Source: an uncultured Gemmatimonadales bacterium (lineage in GTDB: Bacteria > Gemmatimonadota > Gemmatimonadetes > Longimicrobiales > Longimicrobiaceae). From it: a DNA stretch of 64,000 bases. A model generated the notes under the pieces. The model was not told where the DNA came from. It made no database searches and was given only the letters and a program-made list of their open reading frames with translations. The position numbers were made by a program, and so were the translations under genes. The stretch lies in contig OY970303.1 in NCBI GenBank assembly GCA_963716255.1, forward strand, positions 352,001-416,000, read 5' to 3'. This document shows, one piece after another, positions 4,112-60,864 of the stretch. Positions within the stretch are counted from its first letter, which is position 1. Each line of letters starts with the position of its first letter.

Positions 4112-14008
<9,897 letters not shown>

Positions 14009-53165: not shown

Positions 53166-55796
53166 ATGTCGGGAGCGAGCACCCCCCTGATGAAGCAGTG
53201 GCAGGAGGCAAAGGACCAGCACCCCGACGCGGTGGTGATGATCCGCGTCGGCGACTTCTACGAGCTGCTGGGCCCCGACGCCGAGCTGGCCGTGCGCGTG
53301 CTGGGGCTCGCCCTCACCTCCAAGGGCGGCCCCGGCGCCATCCCCATGGCCGGCGTCCCCGCCCGCTCCCGCGACGAGTACCTGGAGAAGCTGGCGGCCG
53401 GGGGCTTCCGCGTGGCCGTCTGCGAGCAGATGGAGGACGCGTCCGAGGCAAAGGGGACGGTGCGGCGCGAGGTCACGGAGGTGGTCACCCCCGGCGTGGT
53501 CTTCGCCGACGGGCTGCTCCGGGAGCGCCGCAACAACTTCCTCGCCGCGCTGGTGGAGGACCGCCACGGCGCGCTGGGCCTCGCCGCCGCCGACGTGACC
53601 ACCGGCGAGGTGATCGTCACCGCGGCCACCGAGGAGTCTCTGGAATCCGAGCTGGCGCGCATGGAGCCCGCCGAGCTGCTGCTGTCCGCCGACTGGAACG
53701 GCCGCGATCTGCCCGGGCTGGAGCGGCTGCGCGTCACCCGGCGCCCGCAGGTGATGTTCGACGCGCGCTTCGCCTGGGACGAGATCTGTTTCCGCTACGG
53801 CGTGCAGTCGCCCGAGGGGTTCGGCATCGGCGAGCGCGACGAGGCGCTGGTGTCGGCGCTGGGCGGGCTGCTGGCGTACCTGCGCGAGGTGCAGCCCGGC
53901 GGCGTGGTGGGCCTGCGCCCCCCGCGGCTGGAGCGCCCCGGCGAGGCCATGGTGCTGGACGACATGACCCGCCGCAACCTGGAGCTCACCGAGCCGCTGC
54001 GCCGCGAGCCGGGGATGAAGCCGGGCGAGGGGACGCTGCTGGGGGTGGTGGACGAGACGCTGACCCCCATGGGCGCGCGGCTGCTGCGGGGGTGGCTGCT
54101 GCGCCCCATGGTGGCGCTGGACCGCATCCGCGCGCGGCAGGACTCCGTGGCCGAGCTGGCCGGCGACAACGAGCTGCGCGGCCGCATCCGCCGCGAGCTG
54201 GAGCACGTGCGCGACCTGGAGCGGCTGGCCGGCAAGGTGGCCTCCGGGCGCATCGGCCCGCGCGAGCTGCGCGCGCTCGCCGACTCGCTCGCGCGGCTGC
54301 CGCGGCTGCGGCGCCTGGAGGAGGGCGCCGGCGGCGGCCCCCTGCGCAAGCTGCTGCGCACGCTGGACCCGCTGGAGGACGTGCGCGAGCGCATCGACCG
54401 GACGCTGGCCGACGCCCCCGCCGCCGCCTTCGCCGAGGGCGACGGGGTGATCCGCCCCGGCTTCGACGCGGAGCTGGACGAGCTGCGCGGGCTGCGCGAG
54501 GGCGGCACCGACTTCATGGCGCGCCTGCAGACGCGGGAGCGCGAACGGAGCGGCATCAACGCCCTCAAGGTGGGCTACAACCGCGTCTTCGGCTACTTCC
54601 TGGAGGTGCCGCGCTCCCACGCGGACCGCGTCCCCGGCGAGTACGAGCGCAAGCAGACGCTCGCCAACCTGGAGCGCTTCGTCACCGGCGAGCTGAAGCA
54701 GTGGGAGGCCAAGATCCTGGGGGCCGAGGAGCGCATCGCCGAGCTGGAGGCGCGCCTCTTCGGCGAGCTGCGGCAGGCGCTCGCCACCCAGGTGAAGCGC
54801 TTCCAGGACGCCGCCGTGCGCGTGGCGACGCTGGACGTGCTCGCCGGCTTCGCCGAGTGCGCGGTGAAGCACGGCTACACCCGCCCCGAGGTGCACGACG
54901 GCTACCGCCTGGAGATCCGCGGCGGGCGGCACCCCGTGGTGGAGACCATGATGCCGCGCGACCGCTACATCCCCAACGACGTGGTGCTGGACGAGGACGG
55001 GCGGGTGATGATCCTCACCGGCCCCAACATGGCCGGCAAGAGCACGCTGCTGCGGATGGTGGGGCTGGTGCAGCTCCTTGCCCAGGTGGGCGCCTTCGTC
55101 CCCGCGGAGCACGCCTCGCTGGGGGTGAGCGACCGCATCTTCACCCGCGTGGGCGCCTCCGACAACCTGGTGCGCGGCCAGAGCACCTTCATGGTGGAGG
55201 CCAGCGAGTGCGCCACCATCCTCAACGGCGGCACGCGGCGCTCGCTGGTGCTGATGGACGAGGTGGGGCGCGGCACCGCGACCTGGGACGGCGTCAGCCT
55301 GGCGTGGGCCATCACCGAGCACCTGCACGGGGTGATGGAGGCCCGCACCATCTTCGCCACCCACTACCACGAGCTGACCGAGCTGGCCGACCTGCTCCCC
55401 GGCGTGGTCAACTTCAACGTGGCCGCGCGCGAGGAGGGGGACCACATCCTCTTCCTGCACCGGCTGGTTCCCGGCGGCGCCGACCGCTCCTACGGCATCG
55501 AGGTGGCGCGCATGGCCGGGATCCCGCCCACGGTGATCGCCCGCGCCCGCGAGATCCTGCGCACCCTGGAGGGCTCGCGCTCGGCGGAGAGCCGCGTCAT
55601 CGAGCACCTGGCCGAGGAGGTGTACCTGGCGGACACGGCGCAGCGCGCGGCCGAGCGGGCCCCTGCTCCGTCCGCGCCGCCCGCGGACGGCCCCGAGCGC
55701 CGCGTCGCCGAGCGCATCCGCGCCGTGGACCCCAACCGGCTGACGCCCATGGACGCGCTGTCGCTGCTCACCGAGCTGCGCGGCGAGCTGGCGTAG
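53166..55796 (+). CDS. mutS: DNA mismatch repair protein MutS
   Basis: TPLMKQW..K, GDFYEL mismatch motif, RHPVVE, Walker A GPNMAGKST, GQSTFMVE, Walker B LMDEVGRGT, FATHYHEL, SYGIEVA, TPMDAL. ATG at 53166 follows GGAG. Confidence 0.96.
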   Translation: MSGASTPLMKQWQEAKDQHPDAVVMIRVGDFYELLGPDAELAVRVLGLALTSKGGPGAIPMAGVPARSRDEYLEKLAAGGFRVAVCEQMEDASEAKGTVRREVTEVVTPGVVFADGLLRERRNNFLAALVEDRHGALGLAAADVTTGEVIVTAATEESLESELARMEPAELLLSADWNGRDLPGLERLRVTRRPQVMFDARFAWDEICFRYGVQSPEGFGIGERDEALVSALGGLLAYLREVQPGGVVGLRPPRLERPGEAMVLDDMTRRNLELTEPLRREPGMKPGEGTLLGVVDETLTPMGARLLRGWLLRPMVALDRIRARQDSVAELAGDNELRGRIRRELEHVRDLERLAGKVASGRIGPRELRALADSLARLPRLRRLEEGAGGGPLRKLLRTLDPLEDVRERIDRTLADAPAAAFAEGDGVIRPGFDAELDELRGLREGGTDFMARLQTRERERSGINALKVGYNRVFGYFLEVPRSHADRVPGEYERKQTLANLERFVTGELKQWEAKILGAEERIAELEARLFGELRQALATQVKRFQDAAVRVATLDVLAGFAECAVKHGYTRPEVHDGYRLEIRGGRHPVVETMMPRDRYIPNDVVLDEDGRVMILTGPNMAGKSTLLRMVGLVQLLAQVGAFVPAEHASLGVSDRIFTRVGASDNLVRGQSTFMVEASECATILNGGTRRSLVLMDEVGRGTATWDGVSLAWAITEHLHGVMEARTIFATHYHELTELADLLPGVVNFNVAAREEGDHILFLHRLVPGGADRSYGIEVARMAGIPPTVIARAREILRTLEGSRSAESRVIEHLAEEVYLADTAQRAAERAPAPSAPPADGPERRVAERIRAVDPNRLTPMDALSLLTELRGELA

Positions 55797-55803
55797 CCCG
55801 CGC

Positions 55804-56754
55804 TCACCCGGCGGGCGGCCTGCCGGCCATCGCCTCCAGGTTGAAGCGCACCAGCAGCTCCGCCAGCTCCTCCGTCGCCTCGGCGCCGATCATGGGCTCG
55901 GGCGGAAAGGAGGGCGGCAGCTCCACCCCCGGGAGCAGCGCCCGCGCCGCCGGCGACACCAGCACCGGACGCGAAGGGTCCAGCCGCGCGACCGCCTCCG
56001 GGTCGCGCGCGGACACCCCGTGGACGCGCCCCCCGTACACGCTGCCGGCGATCAGGCGCACGCGCTCCACGAACGGCTCGTCGGCGTACAGCACGTCCAG
56101 CTCCTCCGCCGCCAGCCGCCGCTGGAGCTCGCGCGTGAACAGCCGGTTCAGGCGGATCACCACCAGCGGCTTCCCCAGCCGGGCCGCCGCGTCGCGGGCC
56201 TCGCCGGCGTGGAAGGCGGTGGTCGCCACCACGTCCGCCGCCGCCAGCTCCGGCGGCGGGGCTCCCCCGGACAGCCGGTCCGCGTGCACCGCCGACACGG
56301 CGAAGCCGAAATCGTCCCGCAGCTCCCCCCCGAAAGCCTGCAGCTGGTCCGCGGTGGACTCCACGAAGGCGCAGCGCACCGTGGCCGCCGCCGTGCAGCC
56401 GCGCACGAACTCCGGCAGGCCGGGGACGGCGATGCGCCGCGTCCACGCCTCGCGCAGCACGCCCACCATCCACCGCGCCGTCTCCGCCAGCACCCGCCCG
56501 CCGATGCGCTCCTGCGGCGCCACGTACACCCCCGAGCGCCCCCGCACCTCCACCAGCCCCTCCGCCTCCAGCCGCCGGTAGACGCGGGCCACCGCCCGCA
56601 GGTCCGCGCCCGTCTCCTCCGCCACCTCGCGATAGCTGGGGAGCCGGTCGCCCACGTCCAGCCGCCCGGTATGGATCCGACCCACGATCCTCGACCGTAT
56701 CATCTCCGCGAGCTGGACGTCGCTCCACCGCTCGCGCTCCCGCAGCTCTCGCAT
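55804..56754 (-). CDS. GntR-family transcriptional regulator
   Basis: N-terminal winged helix IRSRIVGRIHTGRLDVGDRLPSYREVA...VARVYRRLEAEGLVEVRGRSGVYV; C-terminal domain unassigned. Confidence 0.85.
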   Translation of the reverse strand: MRELRERERWSDVQLAEMIRSRIVGRIHTGRLDVGDRLPSYREVAEETGADLRAVARVYRRLEAEGLVEVRGRSGVYVAPQERIGGRVLAETARWMVGVLREAWTRRIAVPGLPEFVRGCTAAATVRCAFVESTADQLQAFGGELRDDFGFAVSAVHADRLSGGAPPPELAAADVVATTAFHAGEARDAAARLGKPLVVIRLNRLFTRELQRRLAAEELDVLYADEPFVERVRLIAGSVYGGRVHGVSARDPEAVARLDPSRPVLVSPAARALLPGVELPPSFPPEPMIGAEATEELAELLVRFNLEAMAGRPPAG

Positions 56755-56934
56755 GCCGCTCCCTCCCCCTGAGACAGTTCCGGTTTCCGGCTGGAATACT
56801 GTTGCAAAAAACGCATCAGTTTGGGAACGTCACTTGCGAAAACCGCGCCCGCCGCCGCACCGAAGCGAGCGGCCGGCGCGCCGGGCCACGTCCGGCAGGG
56901 CGCGTCACCACGTCCAAGACCCGGAGGCAAGCAG

Positions 56935-58029
56935 ATGCACACGCCGAGACCCGGCGCCGCCCGCGGCGCGCTCGCCCTTTCGCTCGTCCTGCTCGGCGCA
57001 TGCGGCGGCGGCATGGCCGGCGCCATGGAGACCGCCCCCCGGCCCAGCGCGGGCGCGCCGATGCCCGCCGCCGACCGCGACATGCAGGCGGTGCTGGACC
57101 AGCTCGCCGCCCTGGGCGCGCGTCCCGTCGAGACGCTTTCCGTGGAGCAGGCCCGCGCCCAGCCCTCCCCCGCCGACGCCGTCAAGGCGCTGCTCCGGCA
57201 GCAGGAGCGCAGCACCGCGCCCGAGCCGGTGGGGAGCGTGCGGGACCGCACCGTCCCCGGCCCCGCCGGCCCCATCCCGGTGCGCGTCTACACCCCGGCC
57301 GGGACCGGCCCCTTTCCGGTGATCGTGTACGTGCACGGCGGCGGCTGGGTGATCGCGAACCTCGACACCTACGACGCGTCGGCGCGCGCGCTGGCCAACG
57401 CCGCGAACGCGGTGGTGGTTTCGGTGGAGTACCGCCACGCGCCGGAGCACAAGTTCCCGGCGGCGCACGAGGACACCTGGGCCGCCTACCGCTGGGTGGT
57501 CGCCAACGCCGCGCAGGTGGGCGGAGACCCGGAGCGGATCGCGGTGGCCGGCGAGAGCGCGGGCGGCAACATGGCCGCCAACCTGTCCATCCGCGCCCGC
57601 GACGAGGGGGTGAAGCTCCCCGTGCACCAGCTGCTGGTATACCCGGTGGCCGGCACCGACATGAACACCCCGTCGTACCTCCAGAACGCCGACGCGAAGC
57701 CGCTGAGCCGCGGGGGGATGATGTGGTTCGCGCGGCACACGCTGCGCTCCCCGGCCGACGCCGCCGACCGACGCCTCAACTTAGTGGCCGCGAACCTGAC
57801 CGGCCTCCCGCCCACCACCATCATCGCCGCCGAGATCGACCCGCTGCGCTCCGAGGGCTCCGTGCTCGCCGAGAGGCTGCGCGCCGCGGGGGTGGACGTG
57901 GACTACCAGAGCTTCGAGGGCGCGGCCCACGAGTTCTTCGGCATGGGCGCCGTGGTGGGCGACGCCCGCGACGCCGTCATCCGGGCCGGCGCGCGCCTGC
58001 GCGCCTCGTTCGCGCGCGGAGGGATGTAG
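56935..58029 (+). CDS. Alpha/beta hydrolase (HSL family esterase/lipase), lipoprotein
   Basis: HGGGW, GESAGG nucleophile elbow, DPL and HEF catalytic motifs, lipobox LLGAC. ATG at 56935 follows GGAGG. Confidence 0.92.
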   Translation: MHTPRPGAARGALALSLVLLGACGGGMAGAMETAPRPSAGAPMPAADRDMQAVLDQLAALGARPVETLSVEQARAQPSPADAVKALLRQQERSTAPEPVGSVRDRTVPGPAGPIPVRVYTPAGTGPFPVIVYVHGGGWVIANLDTYDASARALANAANAVVVSVEYRHAPEHKFPAAHEDTWAAYRWVVANAAQVGGDPERIAVAGESAGGNMAANLSIRARDEGVKLPVHQLLVYPVAGTDMNTPSYLQNADAKPLSRGGMMWFARHTLRSPADAADRRLNLVAANLTGLPPTTIIAAEIDPLRSEGSVLAERLRAAGVDVDYQSFEGAAHEFFGMGAVVGDARDAVIRAGARLRASFARGGM

Positions 58030-58067
58030 CCCACGCGGGGACGCGGGGGGTCAGGGAGCCCGCACTC

Positions 58068-58244
58068 GCGGACGCAGCGCAACCCCCGCGTGAGGGATTT
58101 CGGCCCGAAGGGGCGAGACCTGGCGGGGTAGTTTCCGCCGGGGCTCGACTCCGTTGCAGACGGTTGTTTCGTCTGCTACGGAGCCGAAGCCCGACCCCGG
58201 CGCCAGCCGGGGGCACGCCCGAACCCGGCCGTACAACCAAGCCG
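58068..58244 (-). ncRNA. Candidate structured RNA / repeat element, copy 1
   Basis: On the minus strand: GGGCGTG...CCCCGG-CTGGCG-CCGGGG-TCGGGCT...ATCCCTCACGC. Homologous to 60292-60461 with compensatory stem changes. Confidence 0.7.
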
Positions 58245-59186
58245 TCAGTCCGCGAATGCCACTTCCCCCCGCGCCCGCCGCTCCAGCGGAAGCAGCGCGT
58301 GGTACATGACCCGGTGCAGCGGCGTGACGACCCCGCTCGCCGCCCCCAGCCGGACCACCGCCCCGCACCACGCCTCCAGCTCCGAGGGCCGCCCGCCCGC
58401 CACGTCCCGCTGGAGCGAGGTGGTCCCCTCCGCCGGCTGCGCGTCCACGAAGCCCATGGTCCGCTCCACCACGTCGTCCGGCAGACGGATCCCGCGCGCC
58501 CGCGCCACGGCCAGGATCTCCCCCATCGCCTCCTCCAGCAGCCGGCGCGTCTCCGGCATGACTCGCAGCACGCCGACCGGCGCGCGCGCCAGGGCGCCCA
58601 CGCCGCCCATGGGGACCACGAACAGGAACTTGGCCCACAGGTCCGCCAGCACGTCGTCGGGCGTCGCCGCCGCCACCCCCGCCGCCGCAAGCACCTCCCG
58701 CAGCCGCTCCACCCGCGCCGTGGGCGGGCCGTCCCACTCGCCGAAGGTGACGGACGCCGGCCCGCCGCCGTGCACCACCACCCCCGGCCCGTCCACCCGG
58801 CTGAAGATGCGCGCCACGCCGGGGAGCACGCGCTCCCTCCCCACCACCTCCGCCGCCTGGGCGGGCGCCTCCACCCCGTTCTGCAGCGTCACCACCACGG
58901 TGTCCGGCCCCAGCAGCGGTGCCGCGGTCCGGCACGCCTCCGCCACCTGCCACGTCTTGGTCGCCACCAGCACCGCGTCCACCGGCCCCACCTCCGCCGG
59001 CCGGTCCGTCGCCCGCACGGGGTGCACGGTGAAGTCGCCGGCCACGCTCCGCACCCGCAGCCCGTCCCGCCGCATGGCCGCCAGGTGCTCGCCGCGCGCG
59101 ACGAAGGACACGTCGTTCCCCGCCCGGGCGAGCCGCCCGCCGAAATAGCCGCCGACGCCGCCGGCGCCGATGATCGCGATGCGCAT
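58245..59186 (-). CDS. panE: 2-dehydropantoate 2-reductase (PanE/ApbA family)
   Basis: Rossmann IAIIGAGGVGG, VATK, LQNG, LWAKF, SLQRD..GRPSELE. Confidence 0.88.
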   Translation of the reverse strand: MRIAIIGAGGVGGYFGGRLARAGNDVSFVARGEHLAAMRRDGLRVRSVAGDFTVHPVRATDRPAEVGPVDAVLVATKTWQVAEACRTAAPLLGPDTVVVTLQNGVEAPAQAAEVVGRERVLPGVARIFSRVDGPGVVVHGGGPASVTFGEWDGPPTARVERLREVLAAAGVAAATPDDVLADLWAKFLFVVPMGGVGALARAPVGVLRVMPETRRLLEEAMGEILAVARARGIRLPDDVVERTMGFVDAQPAEGTTSLQRDVAGGRPSELEAWCGAVVRLGAASGVVTPLHRVMYHALLPLERRARGEVAFAD

Positions 59187-59283
59187 GGACCTCTCCTGGA
59201 GCGAATCGGGAGGCGGCGCGAGGAGGCTCGGCCGCCGGGACGATCATCGTACCGCGGGGCGCGGCGGGGCACAACGGAACGAT

Positions 59284-59301
59284 GGAAACGACATCGTTTC
59301 C
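59284..59301. promoter_or_regulatory. Perfect 8-2-8 palindrome, putative operator in the divergent panE/nuclease promoter region
   Basis: GGAAACGA-CA-TCGTTTCC in a relatively AT-rich intergenic region. Confidence 0.45.
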
Positions 59302-59398
59302 GGACTGAAACGCGAACATGGTGGCGCACTGATTTCCCGGCGCTTACTTTCCGCCGTGTTCCGCAGGAAATCCAGGACTCTCCCCCGAGGAGCCGAGC

Positions 59399-60271
59399 AT
59401 GCACCCCACCCGTGGCGTGTCGTCGTTCCGGCTGTACCCCGCCGTACTCGCTTCCCTGGCCGCGCTGCTCGCCGCGTGCGCCCCGGACCAGACGGTCCCC
59501 ACCGCCCCGGCCGCGCCGGAGGCACCCGCCTTCTACACCTACCCCAGCGCCATCTACCGCAGCCACGTGGAGTTCGGCACCCCGTACGACGCGAACTCGA
59601 GCAACGACCTGATCCTGTCCAAGCGCACCTTCACCTCGTCGCACAACTGCGCCGAGGGCGGGCCCAACTGGGTGTCGTACAACCTCAACAAGACGCACTA
59701 CGGCGACGCGGCGCGCTCCACCAGCTTCTACTCCGACGCCAGCCTCCCCGGCACCTGCTACCACGTCGTCACGTCCGACTACACCAACTCCGGCTACTCC
59801 CGCGGCCACATGGCGCGCAGCGAGGAGCGCACCTGGTCCGTGGACGACAACAAGCAGACGTTCCTGATGACCAACATCCTCCCGCAGTACCAGGACCTGA
59901 ACGGGGGGCCGTGGTACAAGTTCGAGCAGTACCTCCAGGACCTGGCGCAGAACCAGAACAAGGAGATCTACGTCATCTCCGGCGGCACCGGGAACCGGGG
60001 AACGCTGAACGGGGCCGGCAAGGTGGTGATTCCCACCTACACCTGGAAGATCGCCGTGGTCATGCCGTACGGTCAGGGGCTCGCCAACGCCACCTCCACC
60101 GGCAGCCTGCAGGTGATCGCGGTGGACATGCCCAACGTCACCGGCATCGCCGCGCGGCCGTGGACCGACTACAAGACCACCGTCGACCAGCTGGAAACCT
60201 TCTCCGGGTACAACTTCCTCGACCGGCTCCCCGACAGCATCGAGACGTACTGGGAGAGCCGGGTGTTCTGA
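59399..60271 (+). CDS. DNA/RNA non-specific endonuclease (NucA/Serratia-type His-Me finger), lipoprotein
   Basis: PNWVSYNL, YSRGHM active site, FLMTNILPQ...LNGGPW..FE, IPTYTWK, VDQLETFSGYNF; lipobox LLAAC. Confidence 0.92.
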   Translation: MHPTRGVSSFRLYPAVLASLAALLAACAPDQTVPTAPAAPEAPAFYTYPSAIYRSHVEFGTPYDANSSNDLILSKRTFTSSHNCAEGGPNWVSYNLNKTHYGDAARSTSFYSDASLPGTCYHVVTSDYTNSGYSRGHMARSEERTWSVDDNKQTFLMTNILPQYQDLNGGPWYKFEQYLQDLAQNQNKEIYVISGGTGNRGTLNGAGKVVIPTYTWKIAVVMPYGQGLANATSTGSLQVIAVDMPNVTGIAARPWTDYKTTVDQLETFSGYNFLDRLPDSIETYWESRVF

Positions 60272-60291
60272 CCTTTTCTCAAGGCTTTCAA

Positions 60292-60461
60292 CGGCTTTGA
60301 ACGGCGGGTCTGGGCGTGTCCCCGGCTGGCGCCGGGGTCGGGCTTCGGCTCCGTAAGCCCGCAAACAACGCGGGCTAACGGAGTCGAGCCCCCGCAAACT
60401 GCAGCGGGGTCTCGCCCCTTCGGGCCGGAATCCCTCACGCGGGGCTCGCGCTGGCGTCCGC
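60292..60461 (+). ncRNA. Candidate structured RNA / repeat element, copy 2
   Basis: GGGCGTGTCCCCGGCTGGCGCCGGGGTCGGGCT...ATCCCTCACGC, inverted relative to copy 1. Confidence 0.7.
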
Positions 60462-60463
60462 AT

Positions 60464-60530
60464 GGGGCCCCCTACCCGGCTCGCTTGAGGCTCGCCGCCC
60501 TCCCCCGATCCTGGGGGAGGGCTTCCTGTC
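60464..60530. repeat. Intergenic copy of the palindromic unit found inside the NRPS A domains
   Basis: ggggccccctacccggctcgcttgaggctcgccgccctcccccgatcctgggggagggcttcctg closely matches 36747-36809. Confidence 0.85.
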
Positions 60531-60864
60531 GTTCCGGGATCTGCGCAGGGAGGTCGGGGGAGGGTCCGCAGGCGGTGCGTTTGTTCGAAGCCAGCGTGAT
60601 CCTGCCCGTACTCGGAGGGTGGGCGAGTGCTCTTGCGAGTCCCTTCGGGTATCGCACCGCCGGAGGAGCGCTCACCCGGCCGACCCCAAACCGGGATCCT
60701 GCCGTAGCGGACCGCCCGCCCCGTAGTCCCACAGGATCTGGACAGGAGCGCAGAATCCGTAGACGACGGCAGGAAACCTTTCGATTACTGGCGGGAACAG
60801 TGCGGATCGGGTATCTTGTGCACACTCCCACGTCCACGAAACACCTCGTCACCCCGGAACCGAA

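Follow-up and report, generated by a model that had tools for sequence, protein, structure and literature searches.

The repeat in the window and in its genome

The window analysed here, a stretch of 64,000 nucleotides (nt) from an uncultured Gemmatimonadales bacterium of the Longimicrobiaceae (contig OY970303.1, positions 352,001 to 416,000), contains two copies of an intergenic element that an earlier note had proposed as a candidate structured RNA resembling the Rfam motif Flavo-1. Both copies were found where that note had placed them, and the motifs it quoted are exact. It had described copy 1 on the minus and copy 2 on the plus strand (the first-noted strand); the strand that folds, referred to below as the folding or Flavo strand, is the opposite one. 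The locus is organized as follows.

56935-58029, plus: flanking gene, alpha/beta hydrolase
58068-58087, minus: semi-conserved flank of copy 1 beyond its CACGC end, beginning with two purines
58088-58220, folding strand plus: conserved core of copy 1 (133 nt), GCGTGAGGGAT ... AGCCCGACC-hairpin-GGCACGCCC
58221-58244, minus: variable flank between stop codon and copy 1, with ACNGC-type 5-mers
58245-59186, minus: flanking gene, ketopantoate reductase family
59399-60271, plus: flanking gene, secreted non-specific endonuclease family; nothing ties it to the element
60272-60311, plus: variable flank of copy 2
60312-60440, folding strand minus: conserved core of copy 2 (129 nt)
60441-60461, plus: semi-conserved flank of copy 2
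60465-60527, plus: copy of a second repeat family, which also flanks a small DUF559 gene

A profile search of the source genome (8.42 Mb in one contig, 73% GC) gave 896 matches, 772 of them full cores; the element is a ~130-nt intergenic repeat. It was present in all eight congeners searched, with 1 to 550 exact-pattern matches each, and in one of 16 other genera of Longimicrobiaceae searched (2 matches). In four of four soil or rhizosphere metagenomes the read depth on the element exceeded that of its flanks ~1000-fold, which excludes misassembly as the source of the high copy number. A literature search on Longimicrobium brought up no description of the repeat.

Gene context was taken from gene calls made for this analysis (5711 genes), by which 769 copies are intergenic. 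Convergent gaps were enriched (280 of 769 copies, against 18% of genome-wide gaps longer than 150 nt) and divergent gaps depleted (43 of 769, against 24%). The GGGCGTG end follows the stop codon by 24 nt in copy 1 (the panE-like gene) and by 40 nt in copy 2 (the nuclease gene), and it lies just behind a stop codon in 516 of 769 copies, at a median of 27 nt. The sense orientation after a stop codon that had been noted holds for the window copies but is not general, since tandem-gene gaps contain 236 sense and 210 antisense copies (p 0.24). The lack of bias relative to transcription, which the earlier note had named as a mark of a DNA-level repeat, favours that kind of repeat.

The flanks follow rules of their own. 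ACGGC, ACTGC or ACAGC occurs within 25 nt of the element in 577 of 772 copies, compared with 8% expected, and two purines follow the CACGC end in 762 of 772; the flank class of copies 1 and 2 is found in 398 of 760. The second repeat family, with 328 copies, stands beside the CACGC end of 241 of the 772 elements and beside the other end of none. Close pairs of elements are mostly inverted, with the CACGC ends facing (29 of 37).

Fold and loops

The fold was derived from 760 parsed copies (12 of the 772 remained unparsed) and 178 distinct copies of relatives. A closing helix P1 leads into a three-way junction with P2 and the terminal hairpin P3, and the interior of P2 is a four-way junction of P6, P5 and P4. 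The ends of P4 and P5 each consist of a fixed mismatch, a variable tip and a loop that reads ANACNRC on the first-noted strand. The helices are placed as follows.

58088-58092, plus: 5' arm of P1 in copy 1, pairing with 58214-58218; in copy 2, 60436-60440 pairs with 60314-60318
58094-58103, plus: 5' arm of P2 in copy 1 (GGG-A-T ...), pairing with 58184-58192; common to Flavo-1
58104-58112, plus: P6 mini-hairpin C-GAA-G in copy 1; copy 2, 60416-60424
58119-58142, plus: exchangeable P5 tip in copy 1; copy 2, 60390-60409; 130 variants, independent of the P4 tip
58156-58176, plus: exchangeable P4 tip in copy 1, the covarying 7-bp stem-loop of the earlier note
60356-60376, minus: exchangeable P4 tip in copy 2; four species have four different tips at this site
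58195-58212, plus: P3 terminal hairpin with loop C-GCCA-G in copy 1; copy 2, 60320-60337

The fixed helices are ~99% invariant across copies. The covariation is real: paired changes occur in P1, P2, P4 and P6, in copies of the genome and in relatives. P1 covaries in 163 of 163 family members, and a GC pair is replaced by AT in 10 of 760 genome copies. The central stems that had drawn attention to the element, GCAGACG/CGTCTGC in copy 1 and AGCCCGC/GCGGGCT in copy 2, differ at all 7 pairs and keep the AAACAAC loop and the A.A mismatch. They do not record seven separate events, however; the tip is exchanged as a block, with 28 arm types of which about 15 recur.

Predicted fold energies of the window copies were far beyond chance for RNA (z -4.3 and -4.8), and for DNA z ranged from -4.8 to -7.0. 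On the Flavo strand the DNA minimum-energy fold was the covariation structure in both copies (z -6.2 and -7.0), whereas on the first-noted strand it differed from that structure.

The P6 triloop C-GNA-G was present in 746 of 760 copies. Its register is fixed by a CGC/GCG variant (53 copies), in which the UUCG tetraloop reading of the first-noted strand fails and the triloop stem is kept. The P3 loop was C-GCCA-G in 521 copies and C-GCA-G in 91. Among 163 family members, 34 of 85 triloop hairpins were C-GNA-G (shuffles: mean 1.9, maximum 6), and among 105 tetraloops three were GNRA and at most one UNCG (0-1). Mini-hairpins of the C-GNA-G type are described as stable in DNA and as present at the G4, ssiA and N4 initiation sites in the available part of PMC13037366.

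Relation to Flavo-1

The Rfam covariance scan gave no window hit at gathering and nothing relevant at E values up to 10 in 57900-60700. The ribozyme models of Rfam did not match the element, and the gathering threshold of the Flavo-1 model RF01705 (42 bits) was not reached. The suspected kinship with Flavo-1 was nevertheless borne out for the outer frame, although on the strand opposite to that noted and with a different interior. Seed rows of Flavo-1 together with their flanks read GCG[U]-[G/U]-AGGGAU, AGCCCGACC, hairpin, GGN[C/A]ACGCCC (available text of Weinberg et al. 2010, PMC2864571), and these ends and flanks are the frame of the repeat on its folding strand. The terminal GGGAU and AGCCC and the long-form ends GCGU[G/U]A, GAC, hairpin and ACGCCC are all present in the element. 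In DNA letters both have 5' GCGT[G/T]AGGGAT and 3' AGCCCGACC-hairpin-GGN[C/A]ACGCCC, both have a P2 with an A.G pair, and both are multi-copy and intergenic. Flavo-1 is itself a repeat, because many of its seed rows come from one Flavobacterium genome (same source and part). In contrast to Flavo-1, a rod with 3x3 GNA/GNA internal loops, the repeat has a four-way junction with two exchangeable tips; it also lacks an Rfam hit and resides in Gemmatimonadota, and the Rfam model leaves out P1 and P3. A GNA pair was present in 84 of 158 other frame members.

A pattern search for the frame returned at least 124 genome loci, and it also recovered this element (748 matches). Among the matches listed, 80 named loci belonged to Bacteroidota, Fibrobacter, Treponema, Longimicrobiaceae and single records of Demequina and Anaerobutyricum. 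Gemmatimonadota, Fibrobacterota and Bacteroidota are members of one superphylum, which would suit recognition of the frame by a shared host protein. Records sharing the interior of the repeat were labelled Longimicrobiaceae or Gemmatimonadota, and the frame pattern with a 60-110 nt interior was found in none of 400 genomes sampled across the phylum. When 20 frame loci were scanned (17 genome and 3 viral), two reached the RF01705 gathering score on the frame; of seven further loci, two matched the model below that score. The P1 helix in 163 distinct members outside the Longimicrobiaceae was GCGTT/AACGC in 99 and GCGTG/CACGC in 64, and the arms were never mixed, although the search pattern allowed mixing. 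The only matches of a profile built from 158 of the non-Longimicrobiaceae members were the window copies 1 and 2, each over its full length (E 0.003 and 0.004); the reversed control gave no match.

In Flavobacterium psychrophilum, hits of Flavo-1 were "indistinctly" in sense or antisense orientation to transcripts, and many did not fall within one (available text of PMC9723704), and neither that text nor the accessible part of PMC2864571 assigns it a DNA function. The repeat varies the Flavo-1 frame and falls outside the family as the Rfam model defines it; it probably works like a single-strand initiation (ssi) signal.

Microviruses, other phages and plasmids

Microviruses and Bacteroides plasmids have shorter versions of the frame, as a rule in one or two copies. 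When viral contigs were scanned three times for the full frame, 93 loci emerged with one match each, of which 24 were microviruses. The genes of these 24 lie on the Flavo strand in 10 and on the other strand in 14; at fourfold-degenerate sites the coding strand is rich in T in the former and rich in A in the latter. The Flavo strand is thus the T-rich strand in 24 of 24, and the skew of the coding strand flips with the orientation of the element.

The same rule was seen in sets selected by capsid. These comprised 225 loci, of which 219 of at least 3.5 kb were scored, with 37 different sequences of the element among them; they share loci with the seed set, related loci are not independent of one another, and two spurious pattern matches inside coding sequence were excluded. 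In two sets all 148 loci were T-rich, and the element was on the coding strand in 48 and on the other strand in none. In the third set (loci L480-L553, capsid relatives of L406) 70 of 71 were A-rich at fourfold sites, the mirror image of phiX174 and G4, and 17 had the element on the anti-coding strand, none on the coding strand. The element was therefore on the T-rich, presumably packaged, strand in 65 of 65 loci that have it. The coding strand of phiX174 has a T skew of 0.78 and that of G4 one of 0.50; in both phages the coding strand is the virion strand. The A-rich clade may package its anti-coding strand. Every microvirus is expected to have a hairpin that signals the synthesis of the complementary strand (PMC9865509).

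The cultured Bacteroides microvirus phiHBP1 has another intergenic cluster, rich in GNA-type motifs, at the position of the frame (L479:2250-2750). In a group of phages (L386, L389, L393, L396, L398, L426, L441, L442, L447, L451, L452 and L457) the frame lies 0-16 nt past the stop codon of a 500-570-aa gene with a P-loop-like motif, in some of them near a portal-like gene. The 570-aa gene received no name from PHROGs or Pfam.

The frame was matched in 84 plasmid records, 82 of them from Bacteroidales, and the window element had no full-length match in plasmids. In the eight plasmid stretches fetched, p5482 and CP126057 have two frame copies each, on one strand. In rep_cluster_1702/MOBB and rep_cluster_663/MOBP plasmids the frame precedes ardC by 340-720 nt; a third plasmid type has it upstream of radC and a fourth upstream of pcfK-pcfJ-ssb. 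All of these genes are templated by the Flavo strand. The relaxase gene enters the recipient last in transfer, according to the available text of PMC11541004, and by this relaxase order, as distinct from a mapped origin of transfer, the Flavo strand is the predicted transferred strand in five of six relaxase-bearing stretches.

Change at fixed sites

Orthologous sites were compared over ~1.75 Mb of three congeners. The position and orientation of the element were kept and its content had changed. In genome G001 (53 loci examined, 93% flank identity) the same P4 tip was present at 8 of 31 shared sites, compared with 3.0 expected at random, and in G008 (flank identity 86%) at 1 of 10. The P4 and P5 tips were independent of each other (p 0.45), and a scaffold type of 49 copies remained linked intact across both tips. 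Because tips differ at fixed orthologous sites, P4 and P5 vary independently and the scaffold type stays linked, the seven compensatory changes between the window copies reflect the swapping of preformed tips, drawn from a pool that the species have in common. A dedicated tip-exchange enzyme was rejected, as distant sites within the main scaffold assort nearly freely; general recombination with selection on the fold suffices for the same reason.

From the side of G000, 115 sites divided into 76 shared, 21 empty and 18 non-colinear. At the 21 empty sites no target duplication was recognized by eye, and the gained blocks include the variable flanks. Ten of 53 G001 loci join the flanks of two distant G000 copies, where misassembly is possible. 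The idea of a rearrangement hot spot was dropped, the loss of synteny at gaps with and without it being not significantly different (p 0.14, 0.82 and 0.09).

The search for a mobilizing enzyme gave little. A Y1 transposase is absent from G000, G001, G002 and G008, which include the three highest-copy genomes tested, and present in G005 and G019. No nuclease or recombinase was recognized by inspection among the listed genes flanked by elements, and 62 neighbours in other phyla were diverse and mostly housekeeping, with no repeated mobility enzyme. Apart from an IS5-like insertion sequence (IS), no neighbour family is enriched. Candidate partner enzymes comprised four tyrosine recombinases, one reverse transcriptase, two DUF559 matches and two GIY-YIG matches; where inspected, none was flanked by the element. 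Both GIY-YIG matches lie in long reading frames, and the one inspected is UvrC-like and unflanked. No gene-bearing version was found in a half-frame scan of viral contigs, and an autonomous long form was discarded, since the orphan ends in G000 are IS insertions or deletions.

Proposed function and alternatives

We propose, with a probability of roughly 0.55, that the repeat and its relatives are a folded single-stranded-DNA initiation signal that has turned into a high-copy chromosomal repeat, with tips overwritten in place. This is the best reading because the structure follows the presumed single strand, not the coding strand, and has DNA-type loops. The element would fold as DNA when the Flavo strand is single-stranded. 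The part held in common with long-form Flavo-1 (P1, P2, the P3 junction, A/GA/N linkers, a 3' CC tail and a pyrimidine 5' of P1) would most likely be the initiation signal proper. A candidate host enzyme, be it a primase, a primosome or RNA polymerase, would start RNA opposite the bases 5' of P1, and when phage or plasmid DNA enters the cell, this RNA would prime synthesis of its complementary strand. The base directly 5' of P1 is a pyrimidine in 152 of 163 family members and in 72 of 73 phage or plasmid copies, which fits a purine start by primase or RNA polymerase. In this genus, the large version with its four-way interior has spread through the chromosome to hundreds of intergenic sites, mostly just past stop codons. 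The sites are retained from species to species, and short tracts of recombination or conversion swap their two stem tips. As the preferred account of the spread we infer a drive through single-stranded fragments that bear their own priming site. The chromosomal copies behave like REP-type repeats without a partner enzyme; that they still prime is a tentative suggestion, which we hold to be somewhat more doubtful than sound.

A wider version of the proposal is rather unlikely to hold in full. Flavo-1 would then be the outer frame of a single-strand initiation signal in wide use, rather than an RNA, and would serve the microviruses and conjugative plasmids of Bacteroidota; among the microviruses, one large clade would package the anti-coding strand. 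In the present genus the signal would have become self-spreading, with ~770 priming sites and with tips shuffled like modules, as a class of repeat driven by priming rather than by a transposase.

Known complementary-strand origins and ssi signals (the G4/St-1/alpha3 origin, the phiX174 primosome assembly site and RSF1010 ssiA) resemble the frame in being intergenic and in carrying GNA/GNNA mini-hairpins, and the frame shares with them its place on the inferred single strand of microviruses and plasmids. They differ in that the frame has no sequence match to phiX174 or G4 and no CTG start, is branched and reaches a high chromosomal copy number.

Several observations weigh against the initiation signal. 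The frame is absent from 154 of 219 microvirus loci and from phiHBP1 (PMC13064476, available part), so microviruses do not require it. With one A-rich clade against two T-rich sets, the strand flip represents few independent events, and the packaging polarity of the A-rich clade is one predicted from skew. The plasmid families number only about four, and the stretch L472 is discordant by its nearest relaxase, which seemingly belongs to an inserted element. At 15 of the 93 viral loci, in larger and apparently tailed phages, the element follows the stop codon of a 570-aa gene by 0-16 nt, and a role on single strands offers no obvious reason for this position. Two places 5' of P1, 67 of 73 phage or plasmid copies have a purine, which shows that a CTG start like that of G4 has not been kept. 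By nearest-neighbour energies the small members have weak folds (z -0.4 and -0.8), and the count of G.T against A.C (54 against 93 cells, dominated by few subfamilies) does not clearly pick a strand. A replichore test revealed no overall preference of the chromosomal copies for the lagging template (404 of 772, p 0.21; the dnaA-like gene is at 3.13 Mb), and lagging-strand priming in the chromosome was set aside; scored by local skew, the figures were 420 of 772 (p 0.016) and, in a second count, 139 of 265 (p 0.46).

An alternative that we regard as unlikely is a repeat of the REP/REPIN or NTS/SRM type, in which a small nuclease or transposase spreads and overwrites a folded single-stranded DNA target, and its copies in phages and plasmids either ride along as passengers or serve as sites of nuclease control, without a part in priming. 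The hundreds of intergenic copies, the excess in convergent and deficit in divergent gaps, the 21 empty beside 76 shared sites with no target duplication seen, and the three IS types inserted into copies all agree with it. Overwriting at fixed sites has been reported for REPINs (REPORTH preprint 10.1101/2024.10.14.618302, available part), and repeats flanking nucleases are known (PMC11893778, likewise in part). Against it stand the missing Y1 transposase in the three highest-copy genomes tested and the lack of a recognized nuclease or recombinase among the element-flanked genes listed or the 62 neighbours in other phyla. Passengers, moreover, should not hold to the strand rule seen in 65 of 65 loci. 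The repeat is like REP/BIME/REPIN-RAYT and NTS/SRM-Ssn in being high-copy, intergenic, biased to convergent gaps, targeted by IS elements and overwritten in place, but it is a 130-nt multi-junction fold instead of a 20-40-nt hairpin. REPIN-RAYT in the strict sense was rejected because no RAYT (Y1 HUH) gene is flanked by the repeat, although a high-copy extragenic repeat with empty and filled sites is REPIN-RAYT-like. NTS/SRM-Ssn was rejected because neither of the two GIY-YIG matches is a single-domain gene flanked by the repeat; no partner nuclease was found among the genes inspected.

The closest architectural parallel is the extended TwoAYGGAY element (RF01731; bioRxiv 10.64898/2026.09.22.753630, available part). 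There, too, an "RNA" of Rfam is a multi-hairpin repeat of variable copy number with two like loops, accompanied by GCCGT/GCAGT/GCTGT 5-mers, one-sided REP arrays and inverted doublets, the last corresponding to the inverted close pairs described above. The repeat differs in lacking an RF01731 hit and in its loops and frame, and its 5-mers are 3' of the folding strand.

The structured RNA as which Rfam files Flavo-1, whether 3' untranslated region element, small RNA or ribozyme, is quite improbable. The strong covariation would suit it, as would the tight spacing after stop codons, seen in phages too, and CUUCGG would be a UNCG loop on the first-noted strand. However, the transcription strand is not preferred, the CGC/GCG variant breaks the UNCG register and keeps the triloop, and the loops are DNA mini-hairpins rather than GNRA or UNCG. 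The frame tracks the inferred single strand, no ribozyme family was hit, and the Flavo-1 loci of F. psychrophilum are likewise indifferent to sense and antisense (PMC9723704, same part). The 24 runs listed as holders of the element included none of RNA, which bears on expression in neither direction. The proposal of an RNA is unsupported, and the data suggest that Flavo-1 is misfiled as RNA.

Still less probable is a single-strand promoter of the Frpo type, which would serve early expression of downstream genes instead of priming. In the plasmid relatives the frame does precede ardC, radC and pcfK-pcfJ-ssb, on the strand predicted to be transferred and with a template polarity that fits, as Frpo/ssi promoters of plasmid leading regions precede ardC, ssb-region and radC genes (available text of PMC11541004), and a pyrimidine-purine step is present at the predicted start. 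Unlike Frpo as described there, the frame is much shorter and in phages is also antisense to genes. No -35/-10-like sigma boxes were recognized in its arms by inspection, no scan being run, and most chromosomal copies sit just behind stop codons. Priming is favoured over gene expression because the RNA would be antisense to all genes in T-rich microviruses (48 loci).

Other identities were set aside: a classical miniature inverted-repeat transposable element (only the 5-bp P1, variable flanks, no duplication by eye at the empty sites), an integron attC array (sequence and context mark the tyrosine recombinases as XerC/D-like and phage-like, and there is no orientation rule) and a tRNA-like CCA end (CCA is not conserved). 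A hepatitis delta virus-like fold and ends of the IS91 type were weighed as well and not retained.

The reading as an initiation signal provides an Rfam orphan, published in 2010, with a function that can be put to the test, offers a candidate for the conversion of single-stranded phage and plasmid DNA to double strand in Bacteroidota, and predicts microviruses that package the anti-coding strand. The chromosomal family is a high-copy bacterial repeat without a detectable transposase that evolves by swaps of stem tips at fixed sites, and it calls for caution in taking covariation among paralogues as evidence of RNA.

Insertions, second repeat family and neighbouring genes

Three IS types were found inside copies, IS481-like, IS4/Tn5-like and IS5-like, the names coming from a reading of protein sequences and not from a library assignment. 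The IS481-like element (C1:639708-641035 and 3217626-3219121) always sits at the same place in P5, flanked on either side by GTCT, and internally deleted 300-bp derivatives are at the same P5 site at 443472, 1742883 and 3578007. The IS4/Tn5-like element is in the P5 tip three times (C1:1756508-1758070, 3672850-3674415 and 4228519-4230080), with a duplication of ~11 bases, and the IS5-like element is in a P4 loop (C1:7602882-7603990). Another IS5-like transposase gene (e.g. C1:8098648-8099763) lies 190-300 nt from the CACGC end in 7 of 10 copies. The sole reverse transcriptase (C1:1015200-1017500) is in a low-GC island unrelated to the repeat.

Degenerate relatives at C1:482204-482292 and 619984-620074 have the P4 or P5 tip modules in common with the repeat and lack the outer frame. 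The second repeat family also occurs in the window near 5582, 8806, 12055 and 36776. The small DUF559 gene (C1:125109-125640) lies between inverted second-family repeats, an Ssn/NTS-like arrangement with another nuclease fold.

A mutS-like gene is at 53166-55796 of the window; the congeners have a second copy at ~73% identity. Between mutS and copy 1 (55800-58030) lie a GntR and a hydrolase gene that two congeners lack; in these, copy 1 follows directly after mutS.

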